NCBI GenBank assembly: GCA_039000165.1
Contig: JAWBTW010000005.1
Location: 981-64,980 of the forward strand
Reading direction: 5' to 3'
Length of the DNA stretch: 64,000 bases
Source: Candidatus Aenigmatarchaeota archaeon
GTDB lineage: Archaea; Aenigmatarchaeota; Aenigmatarchaeia; CG10238-14; SCSR01
Shown: positions 42,099 through 64,000 of the stretch, piece by piece
Layout of the letters: every line of letters begins with the position of its first letter
Position numbering within the stretch: the first letter of the stretch is position 1
Position numbers and translations under genes: made by a program
Notes under the pieces: model-generated
The model's database searches: none
Seen by the model: only the letters and a program-made list of their open reading frames with translations
Told to the model about the DNA's origin: nothing

Positions 42099-42130
42099 AA
42101 TATTTGTTCAAAGAACACTAAGTTATATTT

Positions 42131-45304: not shown

Positions 45305-45311
45305 AATTATT

Positions 45312-47009
45312 ATGAATCAATTTTTTATCTTCCTTTTATCCGCTGCTCTTTTAATTTTACTCTTACCAACTTTCTATGACCTCCATAGTTCTAAAGTTCA
45401 GAGTTACTCTTTTCTTTCTAATTATGAATTAGCGCTTTTTAACTCCGAACTTTACCCTCTAGACTCAAATTTAATAACCGTTTGTTCTTCTGGGTGTAAC
45501 TTTACTTCTATTTACTCAGCTATAAATTACGCTAATATTACTCCAGGAGCAGATATGATTTATATAAAGGAAGGCGTATACACAGAAAACAACATCAAAT
45601 TATACAGCAACATCACAATCGTAGGCGATGGTATAGACAAAACAATTATAAGAAATAAGCTTTATAATTCTACAATAGGTCAAAGGGTTGATATTTTCAC
45701 TAGTAATGTTCCTTTAGAAAATGTTCGGATCGAAAATCTAACTGTTGATACTTTAGGTGTGCCAGACAACATGGGAAGTAGTGCCATAACTTTTCGAGGT
45801 AATGGCACGAACAAAAATATTGTTATTAGAAATGTTAAATCTATAAACGCTTTTGGAGCAGGTATAGCGATTCCAAACTTTGAAAATCTTGTAATAGAAA
45901 ATTGTATAATAAATAACACATGGACAGGAATAACAGTTGGTGGGGGGATAAATGCTTCGATTAAAAACAATATAATTGTTAATACTAGAGGGGATGGGAT
46001 TTTTCCACAAGTTAGACGTTCATCGAATCTCAGCGTTATAAAAGCTTTAATAGAAAATAATTATCTAGAGAATATCGGCGATACAGGAATAGATATAACT
46101 TCTGACTGTGATTTTAAACCTCATGAGGAAATTTATGTTGTTGGTAATAAGCTTAAAAATGCAAGTGTAAGAATTTCTTGTGCATTAAACATTACCTTAA
46201 TTAAGAACTTTATTAAATATGGAAGCATCGGTGTAGATGCTGGTGCAGGAAGACCCATAAACATAGCAATCGAAAATAATTCGATAGAAAGTTCAAAAAG
46301 AGGTATTGTTCTAGGTGGTGCTTTAAACGTAACCGTCAGGGACAACATTATTCATTTCTTTGCGTCTTCGGATTCTTCGCAAACAGGTATAAGTTCCGGA
46401 GTTTGGCAATCGTCGATATTACAAAATAATATTATTTTGAACCCACAAAACTATTGTATCGATTTTAATAATTGGCAGGTTGGCGGAAGCGGAAACACGT
46501 TAATAGAAAATAACACTCTAATCAACTGTGGTGATGTAGGGATTTATGATAATAATGTTAGTGTTGGAAAAGTAGTAATAAAAGGAAATAAGATACTAGA
46601 CTTTAAGAACTTATCAAGACACAGCATTCTTACAGAGAAAGAAAATAATGTATGGATCATAACTAACAACTGGATTTATAATAAAAGCATCTTTGCACCA
46701 AGTAGCATAATTAATGATAATGATTACTCTTATCCTGAACAGTTTTATTTTCCAATTTCTTTAAAAAGTAATAAGTTTATCTTCTCTTCAATACTTCAAG
46801 ATAGTAAAAATAAAATTTTAAGAATATATCTTGAAGAAATTGGATTTGGTTTGAACGAAGAAAACACGATAGAGATTTTCAGTCCAAAAAAACCTTCGAA
46901 AATTAAAATAAATAACCTTGTTGTAACATACGACGATTCTCTTTCTTTACTCCATTCTTGGAAATACGATTCTTCTAATAAAACAATAACTTTAAAGTTC
47001 TTTTCTTAA
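45312..47009 (+). CDS. Secreted right-handed parallel beta-helix repeat protein with shared C-terminal module
   Basis: ATG 45312 (MNQFFIFLLSAALLILLLP signal/anchor) preferred over the ORF-track start at 45204, which overlaps the previous gene. Repeated N-x-x-G-x-G-I/V beta-helix rungs (NAFGAGIAIPNFENLVIENCIINNTWTGITVGGGINASIKNNIIVNT). C-terminal ...KIKINNLVVTYDDSLSLLHSWKYDSSNKTITLKFF matches the neighbours. Confidence 0.6.
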   Translation: MNQFFIFLLSAALLILLLPTFYDLHSSKVQSYSFLSNYELALFNSELYPLDSNLITVCSSGCNFTSIYSAINYANITPGADMIYIKEGVYTENNIKLYSNITIVGDGIDKTIIRNKLYNSTIGQRVDIFTSNVPLENVRIENLTVDTLGVPDNMGSSAITFRGNGTNKNIVIRNVKSINAFGAGIAIPNFENLVIENCIINNTWTGITVGGGINASIKNNIIVNTRGDGIFPQVRRSSNLSVIKALIENNYLENIGDTGIDITSDCDFKPHEEIYVVGNKLKNASVRISCALNITLIKNFIKYGSIGVDAGAGRPINIAIENNSIESSKRGIVLGGALNVTVRDNIIHFFASSDSSQTGISSGVWQSSILQNNIILNPQNYCIDFNNWQVGGSGNTLIENNTLINCGDVGIYDNNVSVGKVVIKGNKILDFKNLSRHSILTEKENNVWIITNNWIYNKSIFAPSSIINDNDYSYPEQFYFPISLKSNKFIFSSILQDSKNKILRIYLEEIGFGLNEENTIEIFSPKKPSKIKINNLVVTYDDSLSLLHSWKYDSSNKTITLKFFS

Positions 47010-47121
47010 CCATAACGAAAAAAATTTAACTTATTCGACTTAGCGATTCGATAGCTTACTATTTCTAGCGAATATAGTCAAAGGTAAATGTTGATATTTA
47101 AAGGAGAATAAAAATATTTTA

Positions 47122-50100
47122 ATGATAAAATTCCCCGCTTTTTTATTAGCTTTTCTTATTACCTTAATTTTTTTCATTAGCGAGTCCGGTGCTTACGATT
47201 TTGCAATAATAAACACAACTAATGTACCAGAAGTAAACAACATATACGAAATGTTTAAAAATTTGGGTATAACTTACAAAAGTCTTTCACCTTCTCAAGT
47301 AACAAGCGAATCTGTTTTTAGCGATGTAAATGGTATAGTCTCTTTTATAGATGAAGGTTTTCCTGTGGCAAATTCCTCTGCAGTAATCGAGTTTGCAAAA
47401 AACCATGTTGTTATATGCCATGCTTACGACTTTGCAAATTATTATTTTCCTTCTTACTCAACTTCTTATCTTAAAGTCTCAGGAAGTACAGTAAATTACA
47501 CTAAGGACTGGGGAAATTTTAGAAAAAACGATAAAGCTCATTTTCAAAGAGAAGACGGCACTTTATACATTTTTCTATCTAGCTCTTTAGAGGGTGATCC
47601 AACAATTGAAAAAATTGCTCAATTCGATGCTACAAGAACTGCTTTCTTCCAAAAGAAAGGTTTAACAGAAAATACTGGCTTTTATGTTCTTGACCTTAAG
47701 GTTACGAGAAACGAAACGGAATGGTCCGGAATTTGGCATATTTTTCCTGCAGTCAAGCTAGTAAAAAATTTTTCGACCGGTAAATATGCGATGTGGATGA
47801 GTAATGGAGTATACTGGTGGGATATAAACTGGGTAAACACCTTTACAGATAGTTTAGCTACAAACAATCCAGAAATAGTTTCGAAAATTGTTATAGGTAA
47901 AAGTCTTGAAGGTAGAGATATTAGCGCTATTCTCATCGGAAAAGGCAATCGGTATGTAATAATTGATGGGACAATTCACGGTAATGAAAAATTGTCAACG
48001 TTTGCAAGCTTGAGATTTGCTGAAATGATTATCGAAAATTATAAAGCTAGAGGTTATTGGTACGATAGGTTACAAGAATTAAAGGTAATCATACTACCAA
48101 TTTTAAATCCTGACGGATTTGTCCATAATTGGAGACAAAATGCTAGAAGTTATCTTTATCCTTCAGATTATCAAAAATCTGGGTATGCTATGGCAGTGAA
48201 TGACCAATGGATTGCTCATGGCATACCAAATAGGGCAGAAGTTGAAGGTCATAAGTGTAATATTGTTCCTCAAGATTCTAATGTTAACGGAACAGTTTTA
48301 AGTGTTAATCAAACACATTTCAAAGTTGGTTTGACTTGGAAATCTGATGGCTCGCCAATAACCACACCTACAAACATTTCGTGGAGCTGCAATGCAACAT
48401 GTTGTAATTTAAACCGTGATTTTCCACCAGGTGCTGACGCTAGCGAACCAGAAACTAAAGCTTTAATAAACCTGGCAGCAAATTATACTCCTATAATTTA
48501 CATAAATGGACATGAGGGTGCTTACTACGAGTACAATAAATATTATTATGCTTCTAATTTAAAAGAGCCTTACATGGGTTTTGCAAAAAGAGCTACTAGT
48601 TTTGCTAAGACAATTTTTACAAACTTAAAACACTGGGGCTATTATACTGATGGAGGAACAAATTATTTCCTTGGAAGAGTGGATACTGCAGCATGCTGTA
48701 ATAATGTTTTTGCTGCTTATTATGTCACATGGAAACATAATGCTTCTTCTTATCTTGTAGAAACGATTGTGTGGAGTAGCACTTATGGGGCCAGACAACA
48801 GTTATACGGTTTTGATTATTATCTTTCCTTTTTTGACGGAGTTATTTCTCATCTAGATATCCTCAAAGAAAAAAATTTTGTTATTCATAGCACAGCAAAA
48901 ATTAAGTCGTTCAATTATGATAACCAATTAATCGTTATGTTAGATACTTCAGAAGCCATTTTACCTACACAAACTGTCATCTTTCTTGGGAATTATGGAA
49001 AACCTAATTCTGTAAAAATTGACGGGATAGAAAAATCTGAAGGTGATGGTTGGGTTTATTATACTGATAGCAATAACATAACCATTACAGGAGCTTCAAA
49101 CTCAATTGTGCTTGGTTGGGAGCCAACTTACACTGCTACCTTTTATCAAACAGGAATTCCTTCTGGTACACCATGGGGTGTTACTGTTGCTAGTAATAGG
49201 TATACTTCTACAGCAAGTAGTTTAACTGTATCTGGGCTGACAGGAACTGTTTCTTACAGCTATGATGCCATTGTTCCTGATACACCAGGAACTAGATACT
49301 CTTGTGTTTCAGATTGTTCTGGCTACGTTAGCCAAGAGTATAATACAACTTCAGCAAATTACATTACTCAATATTTCTTGGCAATGAGCGTAAATCCCGT
49401 AGGAAGTGGTAATGTAGCCCCAGGTAACGGATGGTATAACTCTAGTATGTCAATTACCATTAGTGCAAGTCCAAATCCCGGTTATGGCTTCTCTTTTTGG
49501 AATGGTTCTGGATCAGGCAGTTATACTGGCATAGAAAATCCTGCGTCGATAACGATGAATTCACCAATAACAGAAATTGCTAATTTTGTTCCTTTTTCCG
49601 ATGTAATCGGTTACTGGAAGTTTGACGAAGGCTCTGGTTATGAAGCAAAAGATTCCTCTGTTTATAAAAATAATGGTATAGTTAATGCATCATGGTCCTT
49701 AACTAATTGTCTTTCAATTTATTGCCTTAATTTTGACGGTATTGATGATGTTATCAACTGTTCGAATTCTTCAATTTTAAACCCTAGCCCAACAGGAAGC
49801 ATAACAGTAGAAGCCTGGATTTATCCAAGATCATACGGTGGAAACGGCTTAGGAAGAGTTGTTTCTAAAGAAACAGGAACTACAGCAAACCCTTATGCCT
49901 TAGAGTTAAGAAACACAACCGAAGCTTATACAAACGGCTTAGTCTTTTGCATAGGAAACGGAACTTCAGAAACTTGCACTATAGGTTCAGCTTGCAACAA
50001 CATAATTGCTCTAAACACATGGCAGCATGTTGCAGGAAGATATAATCGCACGCACTTAAGCGTTTTCGTAAACGGTGTTGAAAAGTGCACTCAAAGCTTA

Positions 50101-50706
50101 CTTGATTACAACTTCCAACCAGCTCCAACAAACCTTTTGATAGGAAACAACCCCACTAACTTAAGACAATTTAACGGCACCATAGACGAAGTTAGAATCT
50201 GGAACAGAGCTTTAAGCAACGAAGAAATAAAAAGTGAGTACGAAAAATTCAAGAAAATTTTTGGGCAACTGAAAGATAAGAATGGTATGGCTCTTCATGC
50301 TAACATCACAATTTACCAAGAAGATACAGAAAATATAGTATCTTTAGTCAAGACCGACGATTTTGGTAATTATCTTCTTCATGTATTGACAGGGAAGTAC
50401 GATGTCAAGTTTAGCTTTTTAGACTTTTCCTTTTCTGATTATTGGGTTAAATTTTTATCTCTCAATATATCTTCTCACCTTTTCAATCTTTTAAACCAAA
50501 TAGGTAAAACAAACAACAAAATCTCCTTCAATTTAAATATCAGTAATGACCAATTGATTGAAATTTACAGTCAAAGTAAGCCAACAAATGTTATGGCTAA
50601 CGACAAAAAACTGACTGAAGTTTTCTCTTTTTATAACTTGCAACCAAACACTTGGTTTTATGATTCGAGTGGAAAAAAACTTTATTTGTTTGTTTTAATT
50701 TCTTAA
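47122..50706 (+). CDS. Secreted multidomain protein: signal peptide + M14 zinc carboxypeptidase domain + LamG lectin-like domain + shared C-terminal module
   Basis: 1194 aa. M14 motifs IGKSLEGRDISAILIG and GTIHGNEKLST (HxxE) plus ILPILNPDGF. LamG block FDGIDDVINCSNSSILNP..ITVEAWIYPRSYGGNGLGRVVSKE..WQHVAGRYNRTHLSVFVNG..FNGTIDEVRIWNRALSNEEI. The C-terminal module is paralogous to 39897-42098 and 42131-45304. Confidence 0.7.
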   Translation: MIKFPAFLLAFLITLIFFISESGAYDFAIINTTNVPEVNNIYEMFKNLGITYKSLSPSQVTSESVFSDVNGIVSFIDEGFPVANSSAVIEFAKNHVVICHAYDFANYYFPSYSTSYLKVSGSTVNYTKDWGNFRKNDKAHFQREDGTLYIFLSSSLEGDPTIEKIAQFDATRTAFFQKKGLTENTGFYVLDLKVTRNETEWSGIWHIFPAVKLVKNFSTGKYAMWMSNGVYWWDINWVNTFTDSLATNNPEIVSKIVIGKSLEGRDISAILIGKGNRYVIIDGTIHGNEKLSTFASLRFAEMIIENYKARGYWYDRLQELKVIILPILNPDGFVHNWRQNARSYLYPSDYQKSGYAMAVNDQWIAHGIPNRAEVEGHKCNIVPQDSNVNGTVLSVNQTHFKVGLTWKSDGSPITTPTNISWSCNATCCNLNRDFPPGADASEPETKALINLAANYTPIIYINGHEGAYYEYNKYYYASNLKEPYMGFAKRATSFAKTIFTNLKHWGYYTDGGTNYFLGRVDTAACCNNVFAAYYVTWKHNASSYLVETIVWSSTYGARQQLYGFDYYLSFFDGVISHLDILKEKNFVIHSTAKIKSFNYDNQLIVMLDTSEAILPTQTVIFLGNYGKPNSVKIDGIEKSEGDGWVYYTDSNNITITGASNSIVLGWEPTYTATFYQTGIPSGTPWGVTVASNRYTSTASSLTVSGLTGTVSYSYDAIVPDTPGTRYSCVSDCSGYVSQEYNTTSANYITQYFLAMSVNPVGSGNVAPGNGWYNSSMSITISASPNPGYGFSFWNGSGSGSYTGIENPASITMNSPITEIANFVPFSDVIGYWKFDEGSGYEAKDSSVYKNNGIVNASWSLTNCLSIYCLNFDGIDDVINCSNSSILNPSPTGSITVEAWIYPRSYGGNGLGRVVSKETGTTANPYALELRNTTEAYTNGLVFCIGNGTSETCTIGSACNNIIALNTWQHVAGRYNRTHLSVFVNGVEKCTQSLLDYNFQPAPTNLLIGNNPTNLRQFNGTIDEVRIWNRALSNEEIKSEYEKFKKIFGQLKDKNGMALHANITIYQEDTENIVSLVKTDDFGNYLLHVLTGKYDVKFSFLDFSFSDYWVKFLSLNISSHLFNLLNQIGKTNNKISFNLNISNDQLIEIYSQSKPTNVMANDKKLTEVFSFYNLQPNTWFYDSSGKKLYLFVLIS

Positions 50707-50715
50707 TTTAAGAAT

Positions 50716-51279
50716 TCAACAAATTTTTTCTCCTAAAATCTCAAAAATACTTTCATTCACAAAAACTGGTACTTCATAATCAACTCTTGCAGCTATAGCT
50801 AAGGCATCGCTTGGTCTAGAATCTAAGCCAAGAATCAAATTACCTTGTTTTAAAAAAAGTTTTGAAATGTAAGTTATTCTCCAGCTGCAATTTTCTTCTG
50901 GTAAGCAAGTCTCGTTTCTTGCTTCTGTTATTTTTACCATCAAAACTTGAATCCCAAAGTTTTTTAGCATATCTTTTATTAAATCATGAGTATAAGGTCT
51001 TGGTCCTAAAATTCTTTCCATTCCTCTTCCTATGGAAATTGCTTGGTTTTTATCAACTACCATACTTATTTGTTTGCAATCGCTTGTTAGCCTAACGATT
51101 CCTTCATCTTCTTTTATTTCAACAGAGACAGAAGAAGGGGCAAAACCTATTGTTGAGAGTTGGGGCAAAGCAAAAAAAGTTGAGAAGAAATTGCTTAGCA
51201 AATACCAAAAGAATAAAATAGCCAATATCAAAATTAAAAAAATCGTTGCGAATTTGTAAAAATTCCTTTCTTTTTTCAT
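50716..51279 (-). CDS. Membrane-anchored bifunctional nuclease (BFN/DUF151) domain protein
   Basis: 187 aa. N-terminal TM (ATIFLILILAILFFWYLL), then ISMVVDKNQAISIGRGMERILGPRPYTHDLIKDMLKNFGIQVLMVKI...RPSDALAIAARVDYEVPVFVNE, typical of the DUF151 nuclease family. Confidence 0.6.
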   Translation of the reverse strand: MKKERNFYKFATIFLILILAILFFWYLLSNFFSTFFALPQLSTIGFAPSSVSVEIKEDEGIVRLTSDCKQISMVVDKNQAISIGRGMERILGPRPYTHDLIKDMLKNFGIQVLMVKITEARNETCLPEENCSWRITYISKLFLKQGNLILGLDSRPSDALAIAARVDYEVPVFVNESIFEILGEKIC

Positions 51280-51302
51280 AATTTTAAAATAGCATTAGGC
51301 TT

Positions 51303-52271
51303 TTAAATCTCTAAGATGCAATCTTCCAAATTCTTATCGTTCCTTAATCTTACAAAGGAAGGAGCTCTTAGTTGTAAATCTTTTGTTATCTCCATAAACT
51401 TTACTTCACATATTAGCTTGGGCTTAACCCAGTTTACTATTAAATCAGAAGGAAGTTTTGGTTTTTCTTCTAAAGGGCATTCGTCTATTCTTAATTTTTT
51501 CAACTCTTCTGTAAGCTCAGCATATCCTTTTTCATCTAGGCCTGTTCCACATCTTCCTACATACTTTAATTTTCCTTGATGGAAACAAGCTAAGACCAAA
51601 GCTCCGAAGTATTTTTCACGCCAACCTTCACCTTTTGTATATCCTACAATAATACAATCTAAAGTTTTTAAGAACTTTATTTTCAACCAATTTTTACTTC
51701 TTTTTCCTATTTCATACTTTGAATCTAGGCGTTTTGCCATTATCCCTTCCAAACCCTTTTCCTTGGCTTTCTCAAAAAGATCTTTTCCTCTGCCAATTAT
51801 ATAGCTTGAAAGCATTATTCTTTGATTTTCTTTAACAATACTCTCCAGAATCCTTTTTCTTTCAATCAAAGGCTTATCAACTAAATCTTTTCCGTCTAAA
51901 TGTAAAATATCAAAAACAACGTAAGTAGCTGGCATGATTTCAGATAAAAGCTTAATTCTTAGTTTTTCTCCAACATGCTCTCTTGTCTGCAAAGCAAAAA
52001 AATCTGGCTTACCTTTTTTAAAGACAACTATTTCCCCGTCTAGCACAACTCTTTTTGCGTTTATGTTTTCATAAATTTTAAGAAGTTCAGGATAGTTTGA
52101 CTGGAAGAACTTAAGCCTTCTGTTGAGAAACCTCACTTCCTTTTTTTCTTTATCTATATAAGCTATAGTTCTTGTACCATCTAGCTTAATCTCAAAACAG
52201 AATTCGTCAGAATCAAAAGGTTCTGATATATAAGCAAGCATTGGTTTTATTATTTGGTCGAAAAGTGTCAT
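51303..52271 (-). CDS. ATP-dependent DNA ligase, minimal LigD-type ligase domain (adenylation + OB)
   Basis: 322 aa. Motif I EIKLDGTR (KxDGxR), motif III FDILHLDG, motif IV DGEIVV, motif V EGIMAKR, motif VI WLKIK. Confidence 0.8.
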   Translation of the reverse strand: MTLFDQIIKPMLAYISEPFDSDEFCFEIKLDGTRTIAYIDKEKKEVRFLNRRLKFFQSNYPELLKIYENINAKRVVLDGEIVVFKKGKPDFFALQTREHVGEKLRIKLLSEIMPATYVVFDILHLDGKDLVDKPLIERKRILESIVKENQRIMLSSYIIGRGKDLFEKAKEKGLEGIMAKRLDSKYEIGKRSKNWLKIKFLKTLDCIIVGYTKGEGWREKYFGALVLACFHQGKLKYVGRCGTGLDEKGYAELTEELKKLRIDECPLEEKPKLPSDLIVNWVKPKLICEVKFMEITKDLQLRAPSFVRLRNDKNLEDCILEI

Positions 52272-52358
52272 AATTAGATTTTATAAAAGAAATAATTTCT
52301 TTTCTTCTTTTTAAATCTCAAAACTCTGGAAAATTGGATTGGGTAAATTATCCAAAGT

Positions 52359-53165
52359 TCATCTACTATTCACTTCTTTCTTTTCCTCTTTCTTCTTTTT
52401 CACAGTTTCTATACTAGCTTTTAAAGCTTCTACAAGCTCCTTGGTTTCAGGAATTTTTTCCTCCTTAACTTCAATTTCCTTTCCTTCTGCTCTTGCTTTT
52501 ATCAGTTTCATAAGTTCTTCTGTGTAATTATCCTTAAACTTCGAAGCATCAAATTCTGATTCAGTTAACTTTGAAATTAAGGCTTGGGCTAGCTTAAGTT
52601 CCTCTTCTCTTACAGTTACTAAATTCTTAAGCTCGCTTATCTCTTCTATGTCCTTTATTTCTCCCAAGTAATGTAGAATGTGCATTACCAAACCCTTTTT
52701 AAAAGCTCTTATCGCAACCAAATATTCTTTATTTCTTATGACGACCTTCCCTATTGCAACTTTGTTCGTAATTCTTAGGGCTTCGACAAAAAGAGAGTAA
52801 GCTTTTATTCCTGTTTCTTCAGGGGCAATGTAATAGCTTTTTTCCAAGAATATCGGGTCTATTTGAGAAGCATCTACAAATTCTTGAATTTCTATAGCTT
52901 TAGTTGTTTTAAGCCTGAGCTTTTCCAGGTCTTCCTTTTTAATTATTACATACTGATCCTTAGCTATTTTGTATCCTTTTTCGATATCCTCATATGCAAC
53001 TTCTTTCTCGCATTTTGGACACCATCTCTTATAAACTAAAGGAGTTCCGCATTCTTTATGTAAATTATTAAAAGAAATTACTCTACTTTCTGTTGCCTTA
53101 TAAATCTTTATCGGAATGTTTACCAAGCCAAAAGATATGCTTCCTGAAAATATTGCTCTTGTCAT
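52359..53165 (-). CDS. ku: Ku protein (bacterial/archaeal single-domain Ku)
   Basis: 268 aa. MTRAIFSGSISFGLVNIPIKIYKATE is the hallmark Ku N-terminus; acidic/lysine-rich C-tail. Confidence 0.85.
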   Translation of the reverse strand: MTRAIFSGSISFGLVNIPIKIYKATESRVISFNNLHKECGTPLVYKRWCPKCEKEVAYEDIEKGYKIAKDQYVIIKKEDLEKLRLKTTKAIEIQEFVDASQIDPIFLEKSYYIAPEETGIKAYSLFVEALRITNKVAIGKVVIRNKEYLVAIRAFKKGLVMHILHYLGEIKDIEEISELKNLVTVREEELKLAQALISKLTESEFDASKFKDNYTEELMKLIKARAEGKEIEVKEEKIPETKELVEALKASIETVKKKKEEKKEVNSR

Positions 53166-56051: not shown

Positions 56052-56783
56052 TCACTTATAAACTACATTTAGTATTTTTACGGTTAAAAAATCAGCTCCT
56101 GAGTACAAAGTATAAAGAATTTGGTAACTTGCATAAGTTGTATTCAAGTATACTATAGCTTCAGCTTTCCCAGAGTTTTTCCCAGGGTCTAAAGCTTGAG
56201 AATAGCCATAACCATAAGAGCTTTCTTCTCTATCGTCTATAAAAATAGAAGTATCTGAAGGAATTAAGCTCGCATCACTCGGCTTAAAATAAATGAGTTT
56301 AATGAGTTTGCTTGTGTTTATTAACTCTGGAGCTTCTTTGCTACCTTTTTTTTCAATCGCTACTCTTAAGAATTCGTTTTCTAAAATGATTTCTTGGTTT
56401 CCGTCGTTATCCAGGTCATATTCCCTAACTATAGCGTTTTTCCCTGGAATAAAAATTATATTTTCATTTTTTAGAAAAACTGGCTCAAGTCGATAGTTCT
56501 TAGGCGAATAATAAAAATCGATGCAGTTAGTTTTTTCGTTTATTTTATATTCTCCGTCAGTAACCTTAATGGAAAGAGTCCTAAGACTACCCAAACCTTC
56601 TGTTGCAACTTCTTCTATACTTTGTGACATTAGCCTTAAGTTTTCCCAAGCTTCGTTAATCACTAAAGATTCTCTTGCTTTCTCTATGGTAGGCATCCCT
56701 ATCAAAAGAACTAAAGTTATTCCAGAAACTACTATCATAATAACCATTACATAAGCTACCAATGGGCTTATACCTTTTAACAT
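56052..56783 (-). CDS. Archaeal type IV pilin-like protein (class III signal peptide)
   Basis: 243 aa. N-terminus MLKG|ISPLVAYVMVIMIVVSGITLVL, the KG-ISPLVA class III signal peptide / archaellin-like N-terminal domain. Confidence 0.6.
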   Translation of the reverse strand: MLKGISPLVAYVMVIMIVVSGITLVLLIGMPTIEKARESLVINEAWENLRLMSQSIEEVATEGLGSLRTLSIKVTDGEYKINEKTNCIDFYYSPKNYRLEPVFLKNENIIFIPGKNAIVREYDLDNDGNQEIILENEFLRVAIEKKGSKEAPELINTSKLIKLIYFKPSDASLIPSDTSIFIDDREESSYGYGYSQALDPGKNSGKAEAIVYLNTTYASYQILYTLYSGADFLTVKILNVVYK

Positions 56784-57403
56784 CTTCTTACCTCCACTAT
56801 CGGCTTGTTTTCTGGAGTTATGTCAGAATATTCCACGCAGATTTTACTTGTCCCTGGACCTAAAATTTCATCCCCCCTTATAACAACTTTATCATTTCTT
56901 AAAACCATTGTAATGAAGTTTAACTGCGTCGGATAAACAGAGAATGGTTGGGAAGGTAAGCCGTACCTTTCTACAGAATAAATCTTTTTCTCGATTTGAT
57001 TGCAGGTTCCATTAGTAAAAGCTATAATGAAGGTTGTCCCTTCAACTTTTTGTTTGATTTCAATTTTGTAACTTTCTGAGCCATCTATTAAAAAAGAAAC
57101 ATAACCTAAGTCTTGTTTTTTTCCCGAATAGATTACACTTGCCAGAATTCCTTTTTCAAATTCTTCCTCATCATAAGTGCAAACATAAAAGTGAGTCAAA
57201 TTGGTAGGATAACCTATCAAGTAATAGCTTTCGCTGGCGTTGCCAGTTGCTTCTCCAATTCTATAAAAGTCGTTGCTTTTATTTTCCCCCAAGTGATACG
57301 CGAACCTAAACTTTACATAGCTTATTTTACTTTGAGCTTTGAGAGAGGTTAAGAGAAAACAAAATACTAGGATCAAGGAGGCAAGGAAAATTACTTTTTT
57401 CAT
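56777..57403 (-). CDS. Hypothetical secreted protein (classical signal peptide)
   Basis: 208 aa; MKKVIFLASLILVFCFLLTSLKAQS. Confidence 0.4.
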   Translation of the reverse strand: MKKVIFLASLILVFCFLLTSLKAQSKISYVKFRFAYHLGENKSNDFYRIGEATGNASESYYLIGYPTNLTHFYVCTYDEEEFEKGILASVIYSGKKQDLGYVSFLIDGSESYKIEIKQKVEGTTFIIAFTNGTCNQIEKKIYSVERYGLPSQPFSVYPTQLNFITMVLRNDKVVIRGDEILGPGTSKICVEYSDITPENKPIVEVRRC

Positions 57404-57427
57404 AATTAATCTTTTGATTTTTAATAA

Positions 57428-58021
57428 TTAAACCAGTTTATAGGTTTTTAGAATCTTGTCTCTAAGCTTAAGTTTTTGGTTTTCAAGTCTTAAATCAATA
57501 AATAATAAAAGTTTGTTTTCTTCAGTTTCAACTTTCAGCAGGATTTCTTCGCTTTCTTTAGAGTAAGGTGTTTCATAGAAAATTTTTAGTGTATAGTTTG
57601 CGTTTTGCTCAGGAATTGTGAAGTTAGCACTTAATTCTTTTCCGTCTTCTATATTTTTAAATTCAACGAGCGAATCATTAACACTTAAGTTAAGGAAAAG
57701 AATTTCACTTCCTAAAAGATTTTTTATACTCAAGTTAAGCTTGCTATTCTCTAGTTTTGCTGTTAAAAGGAATGATTTGAATTCCAAACTTCTTCTCTTG
57801 AAAGAGTTTCTTGAAAATGTGGCAAAAGCTTCTAGGTTTTTGGTTAGATTTTCTTTTTCATGAATCGAAAATTCAATACTTCTTATCATTTCTTCCTTAA
57901 CATTTTCAAATTCAAGAAAAAGGCTCTCATCTTTAAATTGAAAGAAGCTTATGCTTGCTTTTATCAACGCAAGGATTATTATAAAAATTATTGCAACTAT
58001 CAAGAAAGTTTGGCCTTTCAC
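57428..58021 (-). CDS. Hypothetical protein with class III (prepilin-like) signal peptide: candidate minor pilin
   Basis: 197 aa; MKG|QTFLIVAIIFIIILALI. Confidence 0.4.
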   Translation of the reverse strand: MKGQTFLIVAIIFIIILALIKASISFFQFKDESLFLEFENVKEEMIRSIEFSIHEKENLTKNLEAFATFSRNSFKRRSLEFKSFLLTAKLENSKLNLSIKNLLGSEILFLNLSVNDSLVEFKNIEDGKELSANFTIPEQNANYTLKIFYETPYSKESEEILLKVETEENKLLLFIDLRLENQKLKLRDKILKTYKLV

Positions 58022-58380
58022 TTTCTTACCACCAAAACAATTTCTAAAGGTTGAAATCTCCCAATATCTCCTGCTAAAAGATAATTTATCCTTGATTTCT
58101 CTTCTTCAAAACTAGCTATTTTGCAAGTCTCAGAACATATAAAAACTTCATAATTCAGTTGATAAGGAAGCAACTTTACAAGCTTGTTTTTTATGCTTTC
58201 GGTATCATTTTCTAAGGCATACTTTCTTAGCTCGTTGCTTTCGTCTAAAGCTTTTAGTGCTTTTAGGCAAATTTCCTTAATGTTAATTTCTGTTTTTTGT
58301 TCTTGCGGAACAAATGCTAAAATTAAAAAAATGACTATTAAAAAAGTTGCGATTGCTGCTTCTGCAATGTATAAAGCCAT
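58018..58380 (-). CDS. Hypothetical N-terminally anchored small protein
   Basis: 120 aa; MALYIAEAAIATFLIVIFLILAF. 4-nt overlap with the downstream gene. Confidence 0.35.
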   Translation of the reverse strand: MALYIAEAAIATFLIVIFLILAFVPQEQKTEINIKEICLKALKALDESNELRKYALENDTESIKNKLVKLLPYQLNYEVFICSETCKIASFEEEKSRINYLLAGDIGRFQPLEIVLVVRK

Positions 58381-59015
58381 TATTTTTCACTTACCTCTAA
58401 GTAAAAATTATAATTAAGATTTTTAATCAAATCCTCGTAGCTAATGTTTCTAAGCTGTTTTAACTTACCTAAAGATAGCATTTCCAATTCCTGTAAAGGG
58501 AAGATTTCTATTTTAAACCCTGAATTTTCCTCGAAAGCGACATTATGGCTTACTTCCTTCACATCTTTTTCTCCTGAAAAATAGACAAAGAAATTTTTTG
58601 GCTGGAAAGCTGAGAAGTTGGACTTTAAACATAAATCAGCCCTTTTTAAGTAGCCTTCTTCGCAGAAAGTTTTATTATATAAGCTAAACTCAACTTCTTG
58701 ATTTTCCTCATAAACCCTTACTGTCGAGAACCAGGCTCTTTTTTCACATGTTTCGTCAAAAATTATAGTTAAATTTACAACAGCATTAACCCTTTCATTT
58801 CCGCTGATCTCTACAATTTTAACGGGTAGCTTGTAAAGTTTTGTGGTTAGGTTTAATTTTAAAGGAATAAACAAATTTCTTGCAACTATTTTTAGGTTAG
58901 TATTTTGATTGTATTGGAGATGTCTTACTAAGTAATTTAAAACAAAACTTAAGGCTATACCTATAACTATTATAATAATCCCAACAGCTATTACAAAATC
59001 AGCTTGGATTGGCAT
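58380..59015 (-). CDS. Hypothetical N-terminally anchored protein
   Basis: 211 aa; MPIQADFVIAVGIIIIVIGIALSF. Confidence 0.35.
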   Translation of the reverse strand: MPIQADFVIAVGIIIIVIGIALSFVLNYLVRHLQYNQNTNLKIVARNLFIPLKLNLTTKLYKLPVKIVEISGNERVNAVVNLTIIFDETCEKRAWFSTVRVYEENQEVEFSLYNKTFCEEGYLKRADLCLKSNFSAFQPKNFFVYFSGEKDVKEVSHNVAFEENSGFKIEIFPLQELEMLSLGKLKQLRNISYEDLIKNLNYNFYLEVSEK

Positions 59016-59018
59016 TAA

Positions 59019-59501
59019 CTAATCCCTTCCTCCAAAAACAATTTTATCTTTGATTTCGTTATTTAAGTTGCATCTAGAGTAGCGCATAATCATTTCCTTT
59101 TCACTTTCAAGTTTTCCTTCGATTTCAACCTCAACCTTAGGAAACTTCTTAGCAAAAATTTCTGAATCAACCCTCGACTCTATTTCTAAATTTTCTTCCG
59201 AATTTTTAATTAAAAGCTCATAATTTTTTCCTGAAATTTTAGAGGGAAGGTTCAAACTAACTTCCTGAAGCAGAACGCAAGAATTATTTTTTGGCGATAA
59301 TTCTGATTTTTTAGCGAAATCGTAAGCTGTTACTATGTAATTATACATTCTTAAAGAAACGCTTTCGAGCTCGTTTTTTGCTTGATTTTTTAACCAGTTT
59401 GAGTAAAAAGAGAAGAAAACTAGAGAAGAAAAAACAATAAGTATTACTGATAATAAAGTAGCCAGAGCATAACTTATCAGGATGGCTTGTCCTTTCATCA
59501 A
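59019..59501 (-). CDS. Hypothetical protein with class III (prepilin-like) signal peptide: candidate minor pilin
   Basis: 160 aa; MMKG|QAILISYALATLLSVILIVF. Confidence 0.4.
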   Translation of the reverse strand: MMKGQAILISYALATLLSVILIVFSSLVFFSFYSNWLKNQAKNELESVSLRMYNYIVTAYDFAKKSELSPKNNSCVLLQEVSLNLPSKISGKNYELLIKNSEENLEIESRVDSEIFAKKFPKVEVEIEGKLESEKEMIMRYSRCNLNNEIKDKIVFGGRD

Positions 59502-59558
59502 TTAAAATTGGCATGCGTAAGATAATATTTATTAACTCTCAAAAATAAAAATAAAAGT

Positions 59559-59990
59559 ATGAGAAAAGGAATATCTCCACTTGTGGCCGCAGTTCTTTTG
59601 ATAGCAGCTACTATGGGAATAGCAACAATCCTAACATACTGGGCATCCACTTTTATCAAATCTTCCTTGCCAGAAGTTGCCAATCAAAGCTATAGTCCTT
59701 GCCTATACGCAGATTTTCAGATTTATTCTTGCTCTTACACAAATTCAACTCCAACAAAAGGAAACATAACTTTAATTCTTAAGAATGTTATGGACGTTGA
59801 GCTAAGGAATCTGACAGCTACTGTATTTTATCCAACTGGCACAATAAAAAACTACAATCTTAAACCAGATAATGTTTTACCGAAAAATATTTACAAAGGC
59901 TTTACAATAGAAGATGTTGATTTGCCTTACACTAAGGTTGTCATAACTACTCATTGTCCGTATGTAGAAGAAGAGTCTCCATGCCAGTAA
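59559..59990 (+). CDS. Archaeal type IV pilin (class III signal peptide)
   Basis: 143 aa; MRKG|ISPLVAAVLLIAATMGIATILTYW. Confidence 0.6.
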   Translation: MRKGISPLVAAVLLIAATMGIATILTYWASTFIKSSLPEVANQSYSPCLYADFQIYSCSYTNSTPTKGNITLILKNVMDVELRNLTATVFYPTGTIKNYNLKPDNVLPKNIYKGFTIEDVDLPYTKVVITTHCPYVEEESPCQ

Positions 59991-60463
59991 AAGGCATTTC
60001 CCCCCTAGTGGCTACAGTACTGTTAATAGCTTTTACAGTAGCTTCAGCCGCGATAATTTCTTTTTGGTTGTTACCTTTTTTGTCATCGTTTTCCAAAACA
60101 ACTAGCGAAGAAGCTGAGATTCAGCTTAAGTGTAGCAGAGGAGGGGTTTATCTTTTTGATTTAAATTATAACTTATCTTCTTCCTCTCTTTCCGGAAAAA
60201 TTGAAAATACTGGCTCTGTCTCCCTTGGAAATTTTGCTTTGCAAATAGTTTACCTTAACTATACGACAGAAAAAATAGAGCTATGCTTTTCTGGAGGAAC
60301 AGTAGTAGCTTGTGAAAACTCTAACCTAACGCTCCTCCCTAGGAACATAATATCTTTTAGCGTTCTGCTTCCAAACAACTACGACATAATAACTCTAACT
60401 ACAAACTGTTCAGTTTATGGAGTTTACGATAGAGTTACAAGGGAAGAGATTAACCAAATATAA
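59981..60463 (+). CDS. Archaeal type IV pilin (class III signal peptide)
   Basis: ATG 59981 gives MPVKG|ISPLVATVLLIAFTVASAAI. The ORF-track start at 59954 adds 9 non-pilin residues. Overlaps the upstream pilin gene by 10 nt. Confidence 0.6.
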   Translation: MPVKGISPLVATVLLIAFTVASAAIISFWLLPFLSSFSKTTSEEAEIQLKCSRGGVYLFDLNYNLSSSSLSGKIENTGSVSLGNFALQIVYLNYTTEKIELCFSGGTVVACENSNLTLLPRNIISFSVLLPNNYDIITLTTNCSVYGVYDRVTREEINQI

Positions 60464-61265
60464 GAAAAACTATTACACCAACACTTATCATAAAAAGACT
60501 ATGCTTTATTCCTGCTACTATAGCTCCTTCCGACATTTTTCCGACTATTAATCCGGCAAAAAAACCTTGGATTATTATGAGATTTTGGAAGAGAAACTTG
60601 TACCTTTCTGTAAGGTTTGTTTGATGAGCTTCCTCAAGAGGGGTTTTAGCTTGCGAAAGACTAGGTATCAAGAACCTTTGCATTATTATCATTACCGCCA
60701 AAAAAACAAAGAAAATTACATAACCTGTAATCATTTGAGATTGAAGGTAGAGCCTCCTTTCTGTTCTTAATCTTTCTATTTCTATGGCAGTATTTGCCAA
60801 AGCTTCTAAGGTATCTGTTAAGTTTCCACCAAAGCGGTGAGTTTCTATTACACTTGAAATAATCCTTGCTATAACTCTTGATTTGCTCTCCTTAGCAAAA
60901 TTTTGAAGAATCTTATCAACGTTAATTCCCCAATCAACTTGTGCTGCCATTTTTTTAACGTAAGGAGTTAGGCTTTTGTAATCGTTAGAAGAAAGAGCTT
61001 TCAAAGCTTGTGGCAATGTCATCCCACTTCTTACGCTTTCTACAAAATCCCTTAGAAAAACTGGAAAAATTTCCTCCAATTCTTTCACTTTTTTGTATTC
61101 CTTATACCTTGAAAAAATTAACGGCGAAACAAAAACTCCAAAAGCGACTATTAAAATTATTTGAAAAATGTTTGAGGTTAAAGAAAAGTAAAGGGAAGAG
61201 AAAGTGAGTAAGAATGCAGCTAAAAGGCCGGTTGGAATAAACACTATAATTTCATTCTTCTTCAC
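60450..61265 (-). CDS. TadC/FlaJ-like pilus assembly membrane protein (T2SSF-like domain), second half-gene
   Basis: The ORF-track start at 61508 overlaps the upstream gene by 247 nt in another frame. A GTG at 61263-61265 (inside ATGTGA, after a GGAGG RBS) gives MKKNEIIVFIPTGLLAAFLLTF... with a 4-nt overlap. Polytopic membrane protein. Confidence 0.5.
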   Translation of the reverse strand: MKKNEIIVFIPTGLLAAFLLTFSSLYFSLTSNIFQIILIVAFGVFVSPLIFSRYKEYKKVKELEEIFPVFLRDFVESVRSGMTLPQALKALSSNDYKSLTPYVKKMAAQVDWGINVDKILQNFAKESKSRVIARIISSVIETHRFGGNLTDTLEALANTAIEIERLRTERRLYLQSQMITGYVIFFVFLAVMIIMQRFLIPSLSQAKTPLEEAHQTNLTERYKFLFQNLIIIQGFFAGLIVGKMSEGAIVAGIKHSLFMISVGVIVFLIFG

Positions 61266-62140
61266 ATTTCTACCTCCACACTTCTCAGGAACATTAGAAA
61301 AGCTATGTTCAATACTGGAAGAATTACATAAATAGTTAGCTCCATCAGGTTGAGAATTTCTATCCCTCCTATTGTTGTTGCTCCTGGTATTGTATTCATT
61401 ACAGCAAAAAGAGAAATTATGAAAAGAGGAGCAGCTATTAGTAAGCCAGTATAAATTTCCGCATAAGTTGTTAGTTGTTGTAAAAATCTTTCTCTTCTTA
61501 TTCTCCATTCAAACAAAGCCCTTATTCCAGAAGTTTTCAAGTATTCTTTCATACTTCCTCCTGCTTCTGTTGTTGTCACAAAGCCTAACAAGAGTTGCCT
61601 TAGGCTTTCCGAAGGAGTCCTTTTGGCAACTTCTCTCGCTGCAGTAACAGGGTCTGCACCAAAAACTTCTATATTCCTAACAATTTTTTTCATTTCTTCA
61701 GCCACTTCTCCGTATTCTTTGAAATTGCTTATAATCTTGAAAACAACATACGGAGGAACTCCGGATTCGGCTATCGCGCTCATATGAGTTAAAACAAAAG
61801 GTAAGTTAGTTTCTATGTTTCTTTTTTTCGATTGCATTATCTGATAAGGGGAAAAGAATAGTGTAAAAAGGCAGATAAACGAAAAGACTATCGGCATAAG
61901 AATGACATAAATCGGAAACAGGATTTCTGGTAGTTTTGAAAAAATGAACACAAAATAAGAAGAAAAGAGACTTATAAAAAAAACTATTATTGTGGTTAGA
62001 ATGCTCATACTAACATAACTTCTTAAAGGAATTTTAATCCCTGATTTAACTAAACTTTCCCTCAAAAAAGAAAAAAGTTTAGGATTTTTGTCTACAATTT
62101 TCCCGAACAATAAAGTTGCGAAGCCGATATATCCCATCAA
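61262..62140 (-). CDS. TadB/FlaJ-like pilus assembly membrane protein (T2SSF-like domain), first half-gene
   Basis: 292 aa polytopic membrane protein immediately downstream of the secretion ATPase. Hydrophobic helices flank a cytoplasmic segment, as in T2SSF domains. Confidence 0.5.
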   Translation of the reverse strand: MMGYIGFATLLFGKIVDKNPKLFSFLRESLVKSGIKIPLRSYVSMSILTTIIVFFISLFSSYFVFIFSKLPEILFPIYVILMPIVFSFICLFTLFFSPYQIMQSKKRNIETNLPFVLTHMSAIAESGVPPYVVFKIISNFKEYGEVAEEMKKIVRNIEVFGADPVTAAREVAKRTPSESLRQLLLGFVTTTEAGGSMKEYLKTSGIRALFEWRIRRERFLQQLTTYAEIYTGLLIAAPLFIISLFAVMNTIPGATTIGGIEILNLMELTIYVILPVLNIAFLMFLRSVEVEM

Positions 62141-62146
62141 CTTTCC

Positions 62147-63757
62147 CTATTTTTTCTTTTTCAACATTTTTGCCTGCTTATAGTAAAACTTAATGTATTT
62201 TGTAACTTCGATATAATCTTTAATTCCTTTTTCTCTTAAGCTTTCAAGAAATTTTTCCCTTCTTTTTATTTCTTTCAAGGCTTCTTCAACCTTACCTCCT
62301 AGTTCTTCAGCTATTTCCTTTATCTTCACACTTTCGTAAAATTTTTCATAAGTATCTTTTGTAGGGTTCCACCTAAAAACAGGGTTTGCTTTTACTTCTC
62401 CTGTTTTCGGGTCAACTGACTGAATTTCAACAACTTCTTTAACCCTTCTAGCAGATTCTCCTTTTTCTTTTGCGTGCGTCATTATAACTATAACATCTAA
62501 ACTTTCTAAAAGCGTAGGCGGGAGCTCTATCGGTGGAGAAGTTAACCTTTTAATAACAGTGTCAACACTTCCTGCATGAAAAGTGCTCATGCAAGGATGG
62601 CCTGAGCTCATTCCCTGAAACATAACATAAGCTTCTTTTCCTCTTGTTTCTCCAACTATAACATAATCAGGATTTTGTCTAAAGCTTTCTTTTAGCAAGT
62701 CAAAAAGAGTGACTTCACCGTATTTTTCTCCACTAGGCAAAGGAATTCCAAAACCTACTCTTGCCAAAGTGGGAATCCAATGTTCGTGAGGAATTCTTAT
62801 TTCTCTTGTATCTTCTATCGAAACGATTTTTGCTTCTGAAGGAATAAACATGCATAAGCTATTGAGAAAGGAAGTTTTACCAGTTGCTACTCCACCAACT
62901 ATCAAAATGGAAGCTTTATGTTCTATCAAATACCAAAAATATGCTAGCATTTCAGCGCTTGCTGTATTAAGTTCAATTTGCTCTATTGGCGAAATAGGTT
63001 TTGTGGTAAATTTTCTTATAGTAAAAGTTGGTCCTCTTGTTGCTACATCTCCTGCAAGCGTGGCAGAAACTCTTGAACCGTCTGGTAAAGTACCTGAAAG
63101 AATAGGTTCGGCATAACTTATGTATCTTCCGCATTTTTCAGCTAATTTTACGACAAAACCTCTCAACTTTTCTTCTTCCGTATAAACTATGTTAGTTTTC
63201 ATAGACCCAAACTTTCTATGAATTATATAGATTGGGATATTAACGCCATCGCAACTTATATCTTCTATGTTTGGATCTTGAAGTAGGGGTTCTATCTCGT
63301 TCAAGCCTATAAAGTTTCTATAAATATGGTACATGAGTTTGATGTAACTTATTCTTGAAAGCTTAAGCCCAAACTCTTTTATTATTTTTAAAACATTTTT
63401 TTGCAAGTATTCCATAGCTTTTGAAATATCTTTGATGGCAGTAAGCTCAACTTCAATAAGTTCTACCAAGGCTTCAGAAATTTTTTCCAGAATTTCTTTT
63501 TCATTTTCTGTAAGTTCTGGTTCTATTACATTATAAATTAGTTCTTGATTCTGTTTATCCCATTTTATGTGAGCAAAAGCAAAAGGTTCTATTAAAGGAT
63601 AAATAACATTAACTCTTGTTAGGTCATGATAAGTAGGGATTTCCACTATTCTTTCCTGTTTTTTCAAAGCAAAGGCTGGAAAGAATTTTCTTTCTTTTTT
63701 TATTAGTTTTCTATAAAGGATTCCTTTTAAACTCTTCACTTTTTCCAACATAATCAT
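62147..63757 (-). CDS. Type II/IV secretion system ATPase (archaeal FlaI/TadA/PilB-like)
   Basis: 536 aa. Walker A GGVATGKTSFLNSL, Asp box/Walker B DVIVIMTH region, His box FHAGS. Confidence 0.85.
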   Translation of the reverse strand: MIMLEKVKSLKGILYRKLIKKERKFFPAFALKKQERIVEIPTYHDLTRVNVIYPLIEPFAFAHIKWDKQNQELIYNVIEPELTENEKEILEKISEALVELIEVELTAIKDISKAMEYLQKNVLKIIKEFGLKLSRISYIKLMYHIYRNFIGLNEIEPLLQDPNIEDISCDGVNIPIYIIHRKFGSMKTNIVYTEEEKLRGFVVKLAEKCGRYISYAEPILSGTLPDGSRVSATLAGDVATRGPTFTIRKFTTKPISPIEQIELNTASAEMLAYFWYLIEHKASILIVGGVATGKTSFLNSLCMFIPSEAKIVSIEDTREIRIPHEHWIPTLARVGFGIPLPSGEKYGEVTLFDLLKESFRQNPDYVIVGETRGKEAYVMFQGMSSGHPCMSTFHAGSVDTVIKRLTSPPIELPPTLLESLDVIVIMTHAKEKGESARRVKEVVEIQSVDPKTGEVKANPVFRWNPTKDTYEKFYESVKIKEIAEELGGKVEEALKEIKRREKFLESLREKGIKDYIEVTKYIKFYYKQAKMLKKKK

Positions 63758-64000
63758 CTCATGTGCTTCTTTCTTACGCTCTTACCAGGTTTGGATATCC
63801 CCCAGAACCTTGCACAAGCAGGGCAAATCCTCATTTTTGTGCTCATAAGGTGAATGAACCTTTTGTCAGTTTGCTGAAGGATTAGAGGATCGGTAATTCT
63901 TAACCCTTTAGTTACAACAAAAGTTTTGTATCTAGGAACTTCTCTTTTGCAAACCCCGCAAGTTACAGTGGTTTCACTTCCTCTTGCCTTGGTGTGAGCA
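63754..64000 (-). CDS. rps26e: Ribosomal protein S26e (3' portion; N-terminus beyond the window end)
   Basis: Minus-strand frame: ...HTKARGSETTVTCGVCKREVPRYKTFVVTKGLRITDPLILQQTDKRFIHLMSTKMRICPACARFWGISKPGKSVRKKHMR*. Matches the S26e pattern C.NC...VPKDKAIKKF...YC.SCAIH. The stop overlaps the ATPase start (ATGA). Confidence 0.6.
   Translation of the reverse strand, partial: AHTKARGSETTVTCGVCKREVPRYKTFVVTKGLRITDPLILQQTDKRFIHLMSTKMRICPACARFWGISKPGKSVRKKHMR

Follow-up and report, generated by a model that had tools for sequence, protein, structure and literature searches.

What kind of surface apparatus is encoded at positions 56052-63757 of a 64-kb stretch of contig JAWBTW010000005.1 from a Candidatus Aenigmatarchaeota archaeon (DPANN), and what might it be used for? 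The stretch at its full length is called the window here. A reading made from the letters without database searches (the sequence-only reading) had described an archaeal type IV pilus locus, and every element of that description was recovered where it had been placed. The locus holds eleven genes and a twelfth that is cut by the window end. We read it with good confidence as the genes for the subunits of an archaeal type IV pilus and for its machinery, and adhesion would be the most likely role. From strand, overlaps and gaps we infer three transcription units. The first consists of an eS26-like gene, the assembly ATPase gene and the genes of the N and C halves of the platform protein, coupled by ATGA/GTGA overlaps. 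The second comprises two PilA-type pilin genes on the plus strand, which converge on the platform and ATPase genes. The third would be an operon of six tightly packed accessory genes on the minus strand, named after the length of their proteins in amino acids (g160, g211, g120, g197, g208 and g243). It diverges from the pilin pair across an A+T-rich spacer of 57 bp (59502..59558), between g160 and the gene of the 143-aa pilin, which is presumed to be the promoter site of both pilin operons. A T-run lies 3' of the last stop codon in the accessory operon.

The ATPase of 536 aa (62147..63757, minus strand) matched Pfam T2SSE (PF00437) with an E value of 1.7e-29 and belongs to the T2SSE/VirB11 superfamily. 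Its nucleotide-binding motifs are intact, with a Walker A motif ...GGVATGKTSFLNSL at residue 288 together with the Asp box, Walker B and the His box, which confirms the FlaI/TadA-superfamily ATPase of the sequence-only reading. Among proteins of known structure it matched afGspE of Archaeoglobus (2OAP) best; the score was 420 bits, compared with 285 for FlaI and 134 for CpaF. The PilB3_C domain was reached with 26.7 bits against a Pfam cut-off of 27, and PilB3_N was weak in the precomputed matches, although a majority of the 120 nearest homologues have it listed; the enzyme is PilB3/afGspE-like. Its homologues number thousands, the nearest named ones being from Candidatus Aenigmatarchaeota metagenome-assembled genomes (MAGs) with 65-90% identity. 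In NCBIfam the FlaI equivalog NF058587 was the top match with 422.8 bits, under its cut-off of 550, followed by BasE with 217 bits against a cut-off of 1000. TadA (TIGR03819) reached 147 bits against 373, and the other components of a bacterial Tad pilus were not found in the locus; a Tad pilus was therefore set aside.

Conservation was followed in a species scan with one genome per species. With the ATPase as query it gave 80 loci, essentially all of them from Aenigmatarchaeota, in which the homologues were 53-94% identical, the best being from a hot-spring MAG (locus L004). Gene order was counted over 83 related loci. Since the only exact match to the window's ATPase lay on a contig of 4.2 kb, the surrounding context was taken from these relatives, which carry L numbers below. 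A core of eS26, ATPase, two platform genes and the pilin pair recurred across about 80 species. The eS26-like gene, of which the window holds the 3' part (63754..64000, minus strand; a 93-aa zinc-ribbon protein, read directly from the sequence), ends in a TGA that overlaps the ATG of the ATPase gene (ATGA). It lay directly 5' of the ATPase gene on the same strand in 69 of the 83 loci. Full-length homologues were found in L002 (9723-10004) and L069 (9725-9997), and the gene was also seen in L084 (49-351). The L069 homologue gave a borderline Pfam match to Ribosomal_S26e (26.8 bits, E 7.5e-6, cut-off 27), and the possibility of a pilus-specific factor was set aside in favor of a divergent eS26. 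This phylum-wide coupling of eS26 with the pilus operon suggests constitutive co-expression.

Both genes that the sequence-only reading had called TadB/TadC-like matched T2SSF (PF00482) with one domain each, the first (61262..62140, minus strand, 292 aa, possibly starting at ATG 62137) with an E value of 1.3e-14 and the second (60450..61265, minus strand, 271 aa) with 7e-20. Since their NCBIfam alignments ran over positions 6-243 and 275-543 of the 555 positions of the FlaJ model, we take them as the N and C halves of one FlaJ/TadC-type platform; together they cover the model, with scores under the equivalog cut-off. The GTG start of the C half within ATGTGA, already pointed out in that reading, could be read directly and overlaps the TGA stop of the N-half gene. 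Independent gene calls on three public contigs agree on a matching pair of about 291/271 aa (271 aa in L001 and L003), and the split is therefore not an assembly artefact. The earlier claim that two genes replace a usual single FlaJ/TadC gene thus holds for the two halves, but not for their being out of the ordinary. Both halves lie downstream of the ATPase gene and on its strand in 44 of the 83 loci. Moreover, two platform genes are the rule in Epd or 'system 1' loci, occur in many clade 2 loci and have been described for some DPANN loci as well (PMC4858521; bioRxiv 10.64898/2026.04.22.720090). A split platform is not unusual.

To find the subunits, 560 candidate starts were scanned over the six frames of the window, taken from open reading frames no shorter than 100 aa. 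The pattern required a short leader with [KR][GA] at its end and then 20 residues with a mean hydropathy of at least 1.8 and at most one charge. Exactly five proteins passed, all within 56052-60463, and class III signals were found nowhere else in the window. With an arrow at the predicted processing site, they begin MLKG↓ISPLVA, MKG↓QTFLIV, MKG↓QAILIS, MRKG↓ISPLVA and MPVKG↓ISPLVA. These are the same five class III proteins that the sequence-only reading had listed, but the pilin-like set is larger and counts seven, since g211 and g120 have lost the leader. Two of the five are paralogous PilA-type pilins. Paralogue 1 (59559..59990, plus strand, 143 aa, MRKG↓ISPLVAAV) matched TIGR02537 with 20.0 bits, exactly at the cut-off of 20, and paralogue 2 (59981..60463, plus strand, 160 aa, MPVKG↓ISPLVATV) with 32.8 bits, besides Pilin_N with an E value of 1e-4. 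Compared with their orthologues in L004 they are 90% and 79% identical, respectively, and the 143-aa pilin, the more conserved of the pair, is likely to be the major subunit. A profile of the pair matched the type IV pilus pilin of Pyrobaculum calidifontis (8FK7, E 7e-11) and PilA2 of Haloferax volcanii (8FJ5, E 5e-4). PilA-type pilins were present in 58 of the 83 related loci, mostly as at least a pair, and 13 of 17 members of the pilin family carried Pilin_N.

These data also bear on whether the locus could encode a reduced archaellum or another flagellar-like rotating motility filament. The FlaI equivalog is the top NCBIfam match of the ATPase, the nearest solved pilin is described as 'flagellar-like', 4 of the 17 pilin family members also touch Arch_flagellin, and a KaiC/FlaH-like ATPase was seen in one related locus only, the distant L084. 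However, the FlaI score stays below its curated cut-off, and afGspE matches the ATPase better than FlaI does. FlaH, FlaF, FlaG, FlaC/D/E and FlaX were not found in the window by Pfam and NCBIfam, where ArlF gave a non-significant E value of 0.057; all archaella have the seven core components according to PMC4858521. Even the P. calidifontis filament lacks supercoiling (PMC10334743). The locus does share a homologous ATPase, platform and N-terminal pilin domain (TIGR02537) with the archaellum (FlaI/ArlI, FlaJ/ArlJ), from which it differs by its split platform, by scores under both the FlaI and FlaJ equivalog cut-offs and by stator and FlaH components that were not found. A motility filament is thus highly improbable. 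The sequence-only reading was right to prefer a pilus over an archaellum, whereas its label 'Tad/Aap-like' proved imprecise in view of the accessory families described below and of the apparent PilB3-type domains.

No A24 prepilin peptidase (PibD/FlaK/EppA) was found in the window by Pfam searches of the locus and of all open reading frames with at least three predicted transmembrane segments, in agreement with the absence of PibD/FlaK, FlaH and FlaF/G claimed before. In 87 related loci (1.38 Mb) a crude scan for the G.GD motif gave only T2SSF and unrelated proteins, which does not prove absence. The gene of this peptidase is usually encoded away from the pilus locus.

What, then, are the six accessory proteins? 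Two weak Pfam matches, of g160 (59019..59501, minus strand, MKG↓QAILISY) to DUF7266 (E 5.9e-5 over 125 residues) and of g243 (56052..56783, minus strand, MLKG↓ISPLVAYV) to DUF7289 (E 3.6e-5, a family also found in the precomputed matches of many homologues), led to a comparison with PilB loci on haloarchaeal plasmids. In Halobaculum halophilum (L088), where PilB has 989 aa and one gene encodes a PilC of 679 aa, the next five genes belong to the Pfam families DUF7287, DUF7288, DUF7261, DUF7266 and DUF7289. In plasmid pHME505 of Haloferax mediterranei (L090) a single 674-aa PilC is followed by five syntenic genes that were matched by size. In both loci (L088 12959-16336 and L090 13112-16344) these five genes are annotated as 'hypothetical', and the annotated start of the L088 DUF7287 protein (VDFGIG…) looks about seven residues short when compared with its L090 orthologue (…NRG↓QTNIDF). 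The haloarchaeal N-termini read RG↓QTNIDF with Asp at +5, RA↓QTFTLE with Glu at +6 and RA↓Q(M/L)(F/L)L(I/V)G, the same signatures as in the window families.

A profile-profile matrix (hhalign) of the five Aenigmatarchaeota families against the five haloarchaeal ones gave the expected partner as the top score in all five rows. The g243 family paired with DUF7289 (E 4.5e-6, probability 87%), the g211 family with DUF7287 (E 3.6e-5), the g120 family with DUF7288 (E 6e-4) and the g160 family with DUF7266 (E 4e-3); the pairing of the g197 family with DUF7261 was weak (E 0.07) and alone not significant. For g211, g120 and g197 the connection comes from this comparison and from the N-terminal register, with no other source, and Pfam searches with 15 divergent members of these three families gave nothing relevant. 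A literature search on the DUF accessions returned nothing. Judged by the profiles, each of these accessory families appears to have its counterpart in the DUF7266/7287/7288/7261/7289 set found after PilB-PilC in haloarchaea.

The first four accessory genes form a minor-pilin module whose order g160-g211-g120-g197 is kept in L002-L004, L006-L008, L013, L035, L075, L084 and L086. Its outer members are leader-bearing. Orthologues of g160, which was by itself found in 14 loci, kept the KG↓x leader there and begin KG↓Q/V/I/L…Y; for g197 (57428..58021, minus strand, GTG start, MKG↓QTFLIVAII) K-G-Q is invariant in nine loci, and g197 always follows g120 in related loci. The inner two, g211 (58380..59015, minus strand, DUF7287-like) and g120 (58018..58380, minus strand, DUF7288-like), begin MPIQADF… and MALYIAE… and contain no KG. 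An overlooked leader is excluded in the window by in-frame stop codons, for g211 two codons (TAG-TTA) and for g120 three codons (TGA-AAA-ATA) upstream of the ATG, and where DNA was at hand, in nine loci, no KG is encoded in frame ahead of the start either. Distant orthologues, however, do bear leaders, TKG↓MNQAD (L075), MKG↓AFEVDY (L084) and HKG↓INQIDF (L086) for g211 and KG↓VLQTLE, KG↓LMKTFE, KG↓QLYTLE, KG↓ALFTVE, KG↓FLHILE and KG↓GLFTME in six distant loci for g120. An NCBI Aenigmatarchaeota MAG has entries with the same protein sequences as g211 and g243, under the locus tags QXQ69_02640 and QXQ69_02660.

An exhaustive profile search with the g211 family returned 123 representative clusters, 85 of them at E values of at most 1e-10. 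All of the 23 clusters with a [KR][GA] leader had an acidic residue at +5, mostly followed by F or Y. Another 71 clusters appeared leaderless by the database start calls, with the acid at position 4, 5 or 6 when counted from Met. Of the 20 position-6 forms, 18 had A, P, S, T or V as residue 2. Methionine aminopeptidase removes Met ahead of a small residue 2, and its action would therefore restore the +5 register in these forms. The same processing would place Asp at +5 in g211 (M↓PIQADF) and Glu at +6 in g120 (M↓ALYIAE), in whose family Glu +6 is invariant (alignment A7). The g211 motif G↓xxxxD[F/Y] is reminiscent of the Flp pilin motif G↓xxxxEY. Two further features of this region were noted. 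g160 and g211 share a reading frame with only TAG-TTA in between (59013-59021), and a ribosome reading through the TAG would make one fusion protein of both; this is probably incidental, since relatives have the two genes in different frames. And in L087 (7892-8996 and 15243-16257) a related pilin operon is interrupted by HEPN/nucleotidyltransferase toxin-antitoxin pairs, which separate its DUF7266-like gene from the g211-like one.

The last two accessory genes can be understood from L013, where a single pilin of 423 aa (9751-11043) is matched by g243 over residues 9-246 and by g208 (56777..57403, minus strand) over residues 237-431 (blastp; E 7e-18 for g208). The g208 hidden Markov model also matched the 1084-aa g243 orthologue of L084. 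Going by these alignments we regard g208 as a C-terminal domain that has become detached from the tip pilin. Its gene sits upstream of g243, and its protein is exported and has its own Sec-type signal or anchor, MKKVIFLASLILVFCFLLTSLKA↓QSK, the signal site being conserved in the subclade as …SL(K/N/S)A↓QS. The orthologues of g243 begin KG↓(I/V/M)SP, and an AlphaFold2 model of g243 with a predicted local distance difference test (pLDDT) of 70 shows a 56-residue N-terminal helix (7-62) and a beta domain, thus the shape of a pilin. In L075 and L086 the orthologues end in a lectin-like Laminin_G_3 (LamG) domain. We propose that g243 may be a tip or adhesin-carrying pilin, a role that fits because the C-terminus is variable and sometimes lectin-bearing. 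The top Foldseek matches of the g243 model, beta-sandwich parts of GH38 mannosidases and coronavirus spikes, were judged meaningless.

Identity to L004 decreased from the ATPase (94%) and the housekeeping flanks (88-95%) over the platform halves (84-89%) and the pilins (79-90%) to the accessory proteins (61-72%), the pattern expected of surface-exposed specificity components. The six-gene operon stands beside the core only in the subclade of the window and a few others (L002-L004, L006-L008, L013, L035 and L075); in other lineages housekeeping genes follow the pilin pair. In L084, the ATPase of which is 54% identical to that of the window, the gene of the KaiC/FlaH-like ATPase (PF06745, DUF7125; 2142-2837) separates that of the pilus ATPase from those of the platform, and an 827-aa LamG adhesin precedes the four-gene module; the window has neither of these extras.

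Where does such a locus stand among known systems? It resembles the clade 2 or 'system 2' pili of the H. volcanii PilB3/PilB4 type in its PilA-type Pilin_N pilins and in the five accessory families, which correspond one to one; the PilB3_N and PilB3_C terminal domains of the ATPase may be a further common trait. It differs from the haloarchaeal loci in having two platform genes instead of one of 679 aa and a compact ATPase of 536 instead of 989 aa, and in gene order, with the DUF7266-like gene first instead of fourth. In addition, a leader is missing from two of the five accessory proteins, g208 and g243 divide the tip pilin between them, and eS26 heads the operon. A single platform gene has been given as a criterion of system 2 (bioRxiv 10.64898/2026.04.22.720090), whereas two tadC-like genes were reported for many clade 2 loci (Makarova 2016, PMC4858521). 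The window departs from the single-gene criterion, and the sources disagree on whether it is defining. Two platform genes and one ATPase are also found in the Epd or 'system 1' pilus of Methanococcus maripaludis (EpdJ, EpdK, EpdL and EpdA-D, compared by description), which has been reported in DPANN (bioRxiv 10.64898/2026.04.22.720090; PMC4858521). Epd likewise requires several minor pilins beside the major one, and two subunits of the window share its Gln at +1 (KG↓Q). These two, however, have neither the Ser +3 nor the Glu +5 of the EppA-type QxSxE N-terminus, DUF361/Class_IIIsignal (PF04021) had no match in the locus at E values up to 0.1, and no EppA is encoded near it. In the major pilins of the window (143-160 aa) there is a globular beta domain akin to that of 8FK7, whereas the Epd major pilin has been described as having no globular part (bioRxiv 10.64898/2026.04.22.720090). 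In our view the locus represents, in DPANN, the euryarchaeal clade 2/'system 2' PilB-type pilus (PMC4858521), with an Epd-like split platform.

The likeness to the bacterial systems is more limited. A platform split into two single-T2SSF proteins and the ATPase superfamily are shared with the Tad (Flp) pilus, but a short Flp-type pilin, TadV, a secretin and TadZ are lacking in the window, and its pilins are of the archaeal Pilin_N type. The four small pilin-like proteins with one large apical protein resemble PilHIJK/GspHIJK with PilC/PilY1 or CpaL by analogy only. The apical protein as one chain (L013, L084) or two (window) parallels the bacterial arrangements with a beta-strand in cis or in trans (bioRxiv 10.64898/2026.02.14.705861). 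The pair g243 and g208 also parallels the two-gene pilin PilA-N/PilA-C of Geobacter sulfurreducens, with the differences that in the window the gene of the C-terminal domain lies upstream of that of the N-terminal part and encodes its own Sec-type signal, and that a minor or tip pilin is concerned and not the major subunit. DPANN islands with FlaI, TadB, TadC and 'dark-matter' pilins have been pointed out before (PMC6393860). The locus, which looks complete and is well conserved, is an ordinary member of a catalogued archaeal pilus class and not a new kind of system; its unusual details are the leaderless g211 and g120 with their kept acidic register, the tip pilin that is fused or split, and the coupling to eS26.

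Because of the homology of ATPase and platform and the analogy with characterized type IV filaments and minor pilins, the following mechanism can be put forward. A hexameric ATPase would dock on a heterodimeric platform of the two half-size T2SSF proteins and lift membrane-anchored pilins into a filament composed mainly of the 143-aa and/or the 160-aa pilin. The five subunits with short leaders (MKG, MLKG, MRKG and MPVKG) would need a prepilin peptidase encoded elsewhere, whereas g211 and g120 would probably reach their mature register after loss of the initiator Met. A complex of the g160, g211, g120 and g197 proteins may prime assembly and form the tip, with the large pilin g243 as its cap and the former C-terminal domain of the latter supplied separately as exported g208. 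M. maripaludis cannot do without its minor pilins (PMC3875500), and in bacterial PilHIJK/GspHIJK tip complexes the apical protein can be provided in cis or in trans (bioRxiv 10.64898/2026.02.14.705861). The most likely role would be adhesion to a surface or a host cell, with the fast-evolving tip module as the likely determinant of specificity.

Several points weigh against this assignment. Pilus expression and filaments are predictions from the genes, and since no peptidase was found in the window or the related loci, the processing of the five leader-bearing subunits is assumed. The haloarchaeal links of g211, g120 and g197 are mainly N-terminal (38, 26 and 35 columns, with probabilities of 72%, 28% and <1%), and when single haloarchaeal sequences were used instead of profiles the probabilities were 51%, 13% and 2%. 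The AlphaFold2 model of g211, made from eight sequences, has an N-terminal helix and beta strands at a pLDDT of only 49; it is unreliable and was left out of the fold search. That of g243 found nothing in the Protein Data Bank with Foldseek at E values of at most 1e-3. The N-terminal flank of leaderless g211 has no positive charge, so that its membrane orientation is not self-evident. Finally, most Aenigmatarchaeota loci do not have the six-gene operon beside the core, of which it is not an obligatory neighbor.

The neighborhood of the locus suggests two other functions. Downstream of it lie end-joining genes (50716-53165), with Ku at 52359-53165, an ATP-dependent DNA ligase at 51303-52271 and a bifunctional-nuclease-domain (BFN) protein at 50716-51279. 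A LigD-type PrimPol is encoded upstream of eS26 in L002 (7356-9680, 774 aa, with intein/LAGLIDADG matches) and L003 (8688-9755). Complete sets of non-homologous end-joining genes are uncommon in archaea. Instead of or beside an adhesin, the locus could accordingly encode a pilus for DNA uptake (competence) or DNA exchange, the captured DNA being repaired or integrated by these neighbors. In M. maripaludis, type IV-like pilus genes are reported to be among those needed for natural transformation (PMC10133366). However, the locus contains no DNA-translocation or DNA-binding component, the downstream end-joining neighborhood is not kept in L003, where replication factor C (RFC) genes are found instead, and the LamG lectin-like tip pilins of orthologous loci point to binding of carbohydrates or surfaces. 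DNA uptake is therefore unlikely, even though it and adhesion are not mutually exclusive.

The other proposal concerns an island (38562-50706) of large proteins with Sec signals, preceded by a HerA/DUF87-like ATPase gene. It comprises four large secreted proteins (39897-50706), among them an M14 carboxypeptidase with Laminin_G_3 (twice), a beta-helix/pectin-lyase-like protein and a 1057-aa LamG protein. The open reading frame at 45204-47009 overlaps the preceding gene by about 100 nt as listed, and its true start is probably further downstream. The pilus genes could serve to export or display these hydrolases, as a pseudopilus like that of type II secretion or as an apparatus resembling the bindosome, and BasE is the second-best NCBIfam match of the ATPase. 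The LamG domains shared by the island proteins with the tip pilins and adhesins of related loci are the only hint in favor of such a link. The sequence-only reading had gone in this direction with a combined attachment and degradation apparatus adjacent to the island, which we could not uphold. The island is 5.3 kb off, behind five unrelated genes (BFN nuclease, DNA ligase, Ku, radical-SAM protein and CTP synthase), and its proteins carry Sec-type and not class III signals. Moreover, no class III substrate-binding proteins are present, BasE and BasF score far under their cut-offs, and relatives do not keep the arrangement in synteny, L003 having other genes downstream of its pilus locus. We consider this reading as improbable as a motility filament. 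At a distance from both regions, a free-standing LAGLIDADG_3 protein of 297 aa (9055-9948) is encoded among genes of central metabolism (TIM, PGK, GAPDH and a formate/nitrite transporter).

For Aenigmatarchaeota, none of which has been cultured to our knowledge, the type IV pilus described here provides a concrete and conserved parts list. Type IV pili are prime candidates for the attachment of DPANN archaea to hosts or surfaces. A number of 'hypothetical' proteins gain names, and the DUF7266/7287/7288/7261/7289 equivalents in genetically tractable haloarchaea make their function testable in Haloferax. The leaderless minor pilins with kept D5/E6 and the fused or split tip pilin bear on what licenses the assembly of a type IV filament. 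Taken together, and only tentatively, g211 and g120 may have repeatedly lost their leader in Aenigmatarchaeota and kept the D5/E6 register via Met removal, so that part of the priming complex would bypass the prepilin peptidase. With the eS26 coupling and the fused or split tip, this would describe a constitutive and modular organelle for DPANN host attachment. In bacterial pilins Glu5 is the comparable acidic residue. If this joint reading is true, what assembly needs would be a free N-terminus with an acid five or six positions in, and not cleavage itself.

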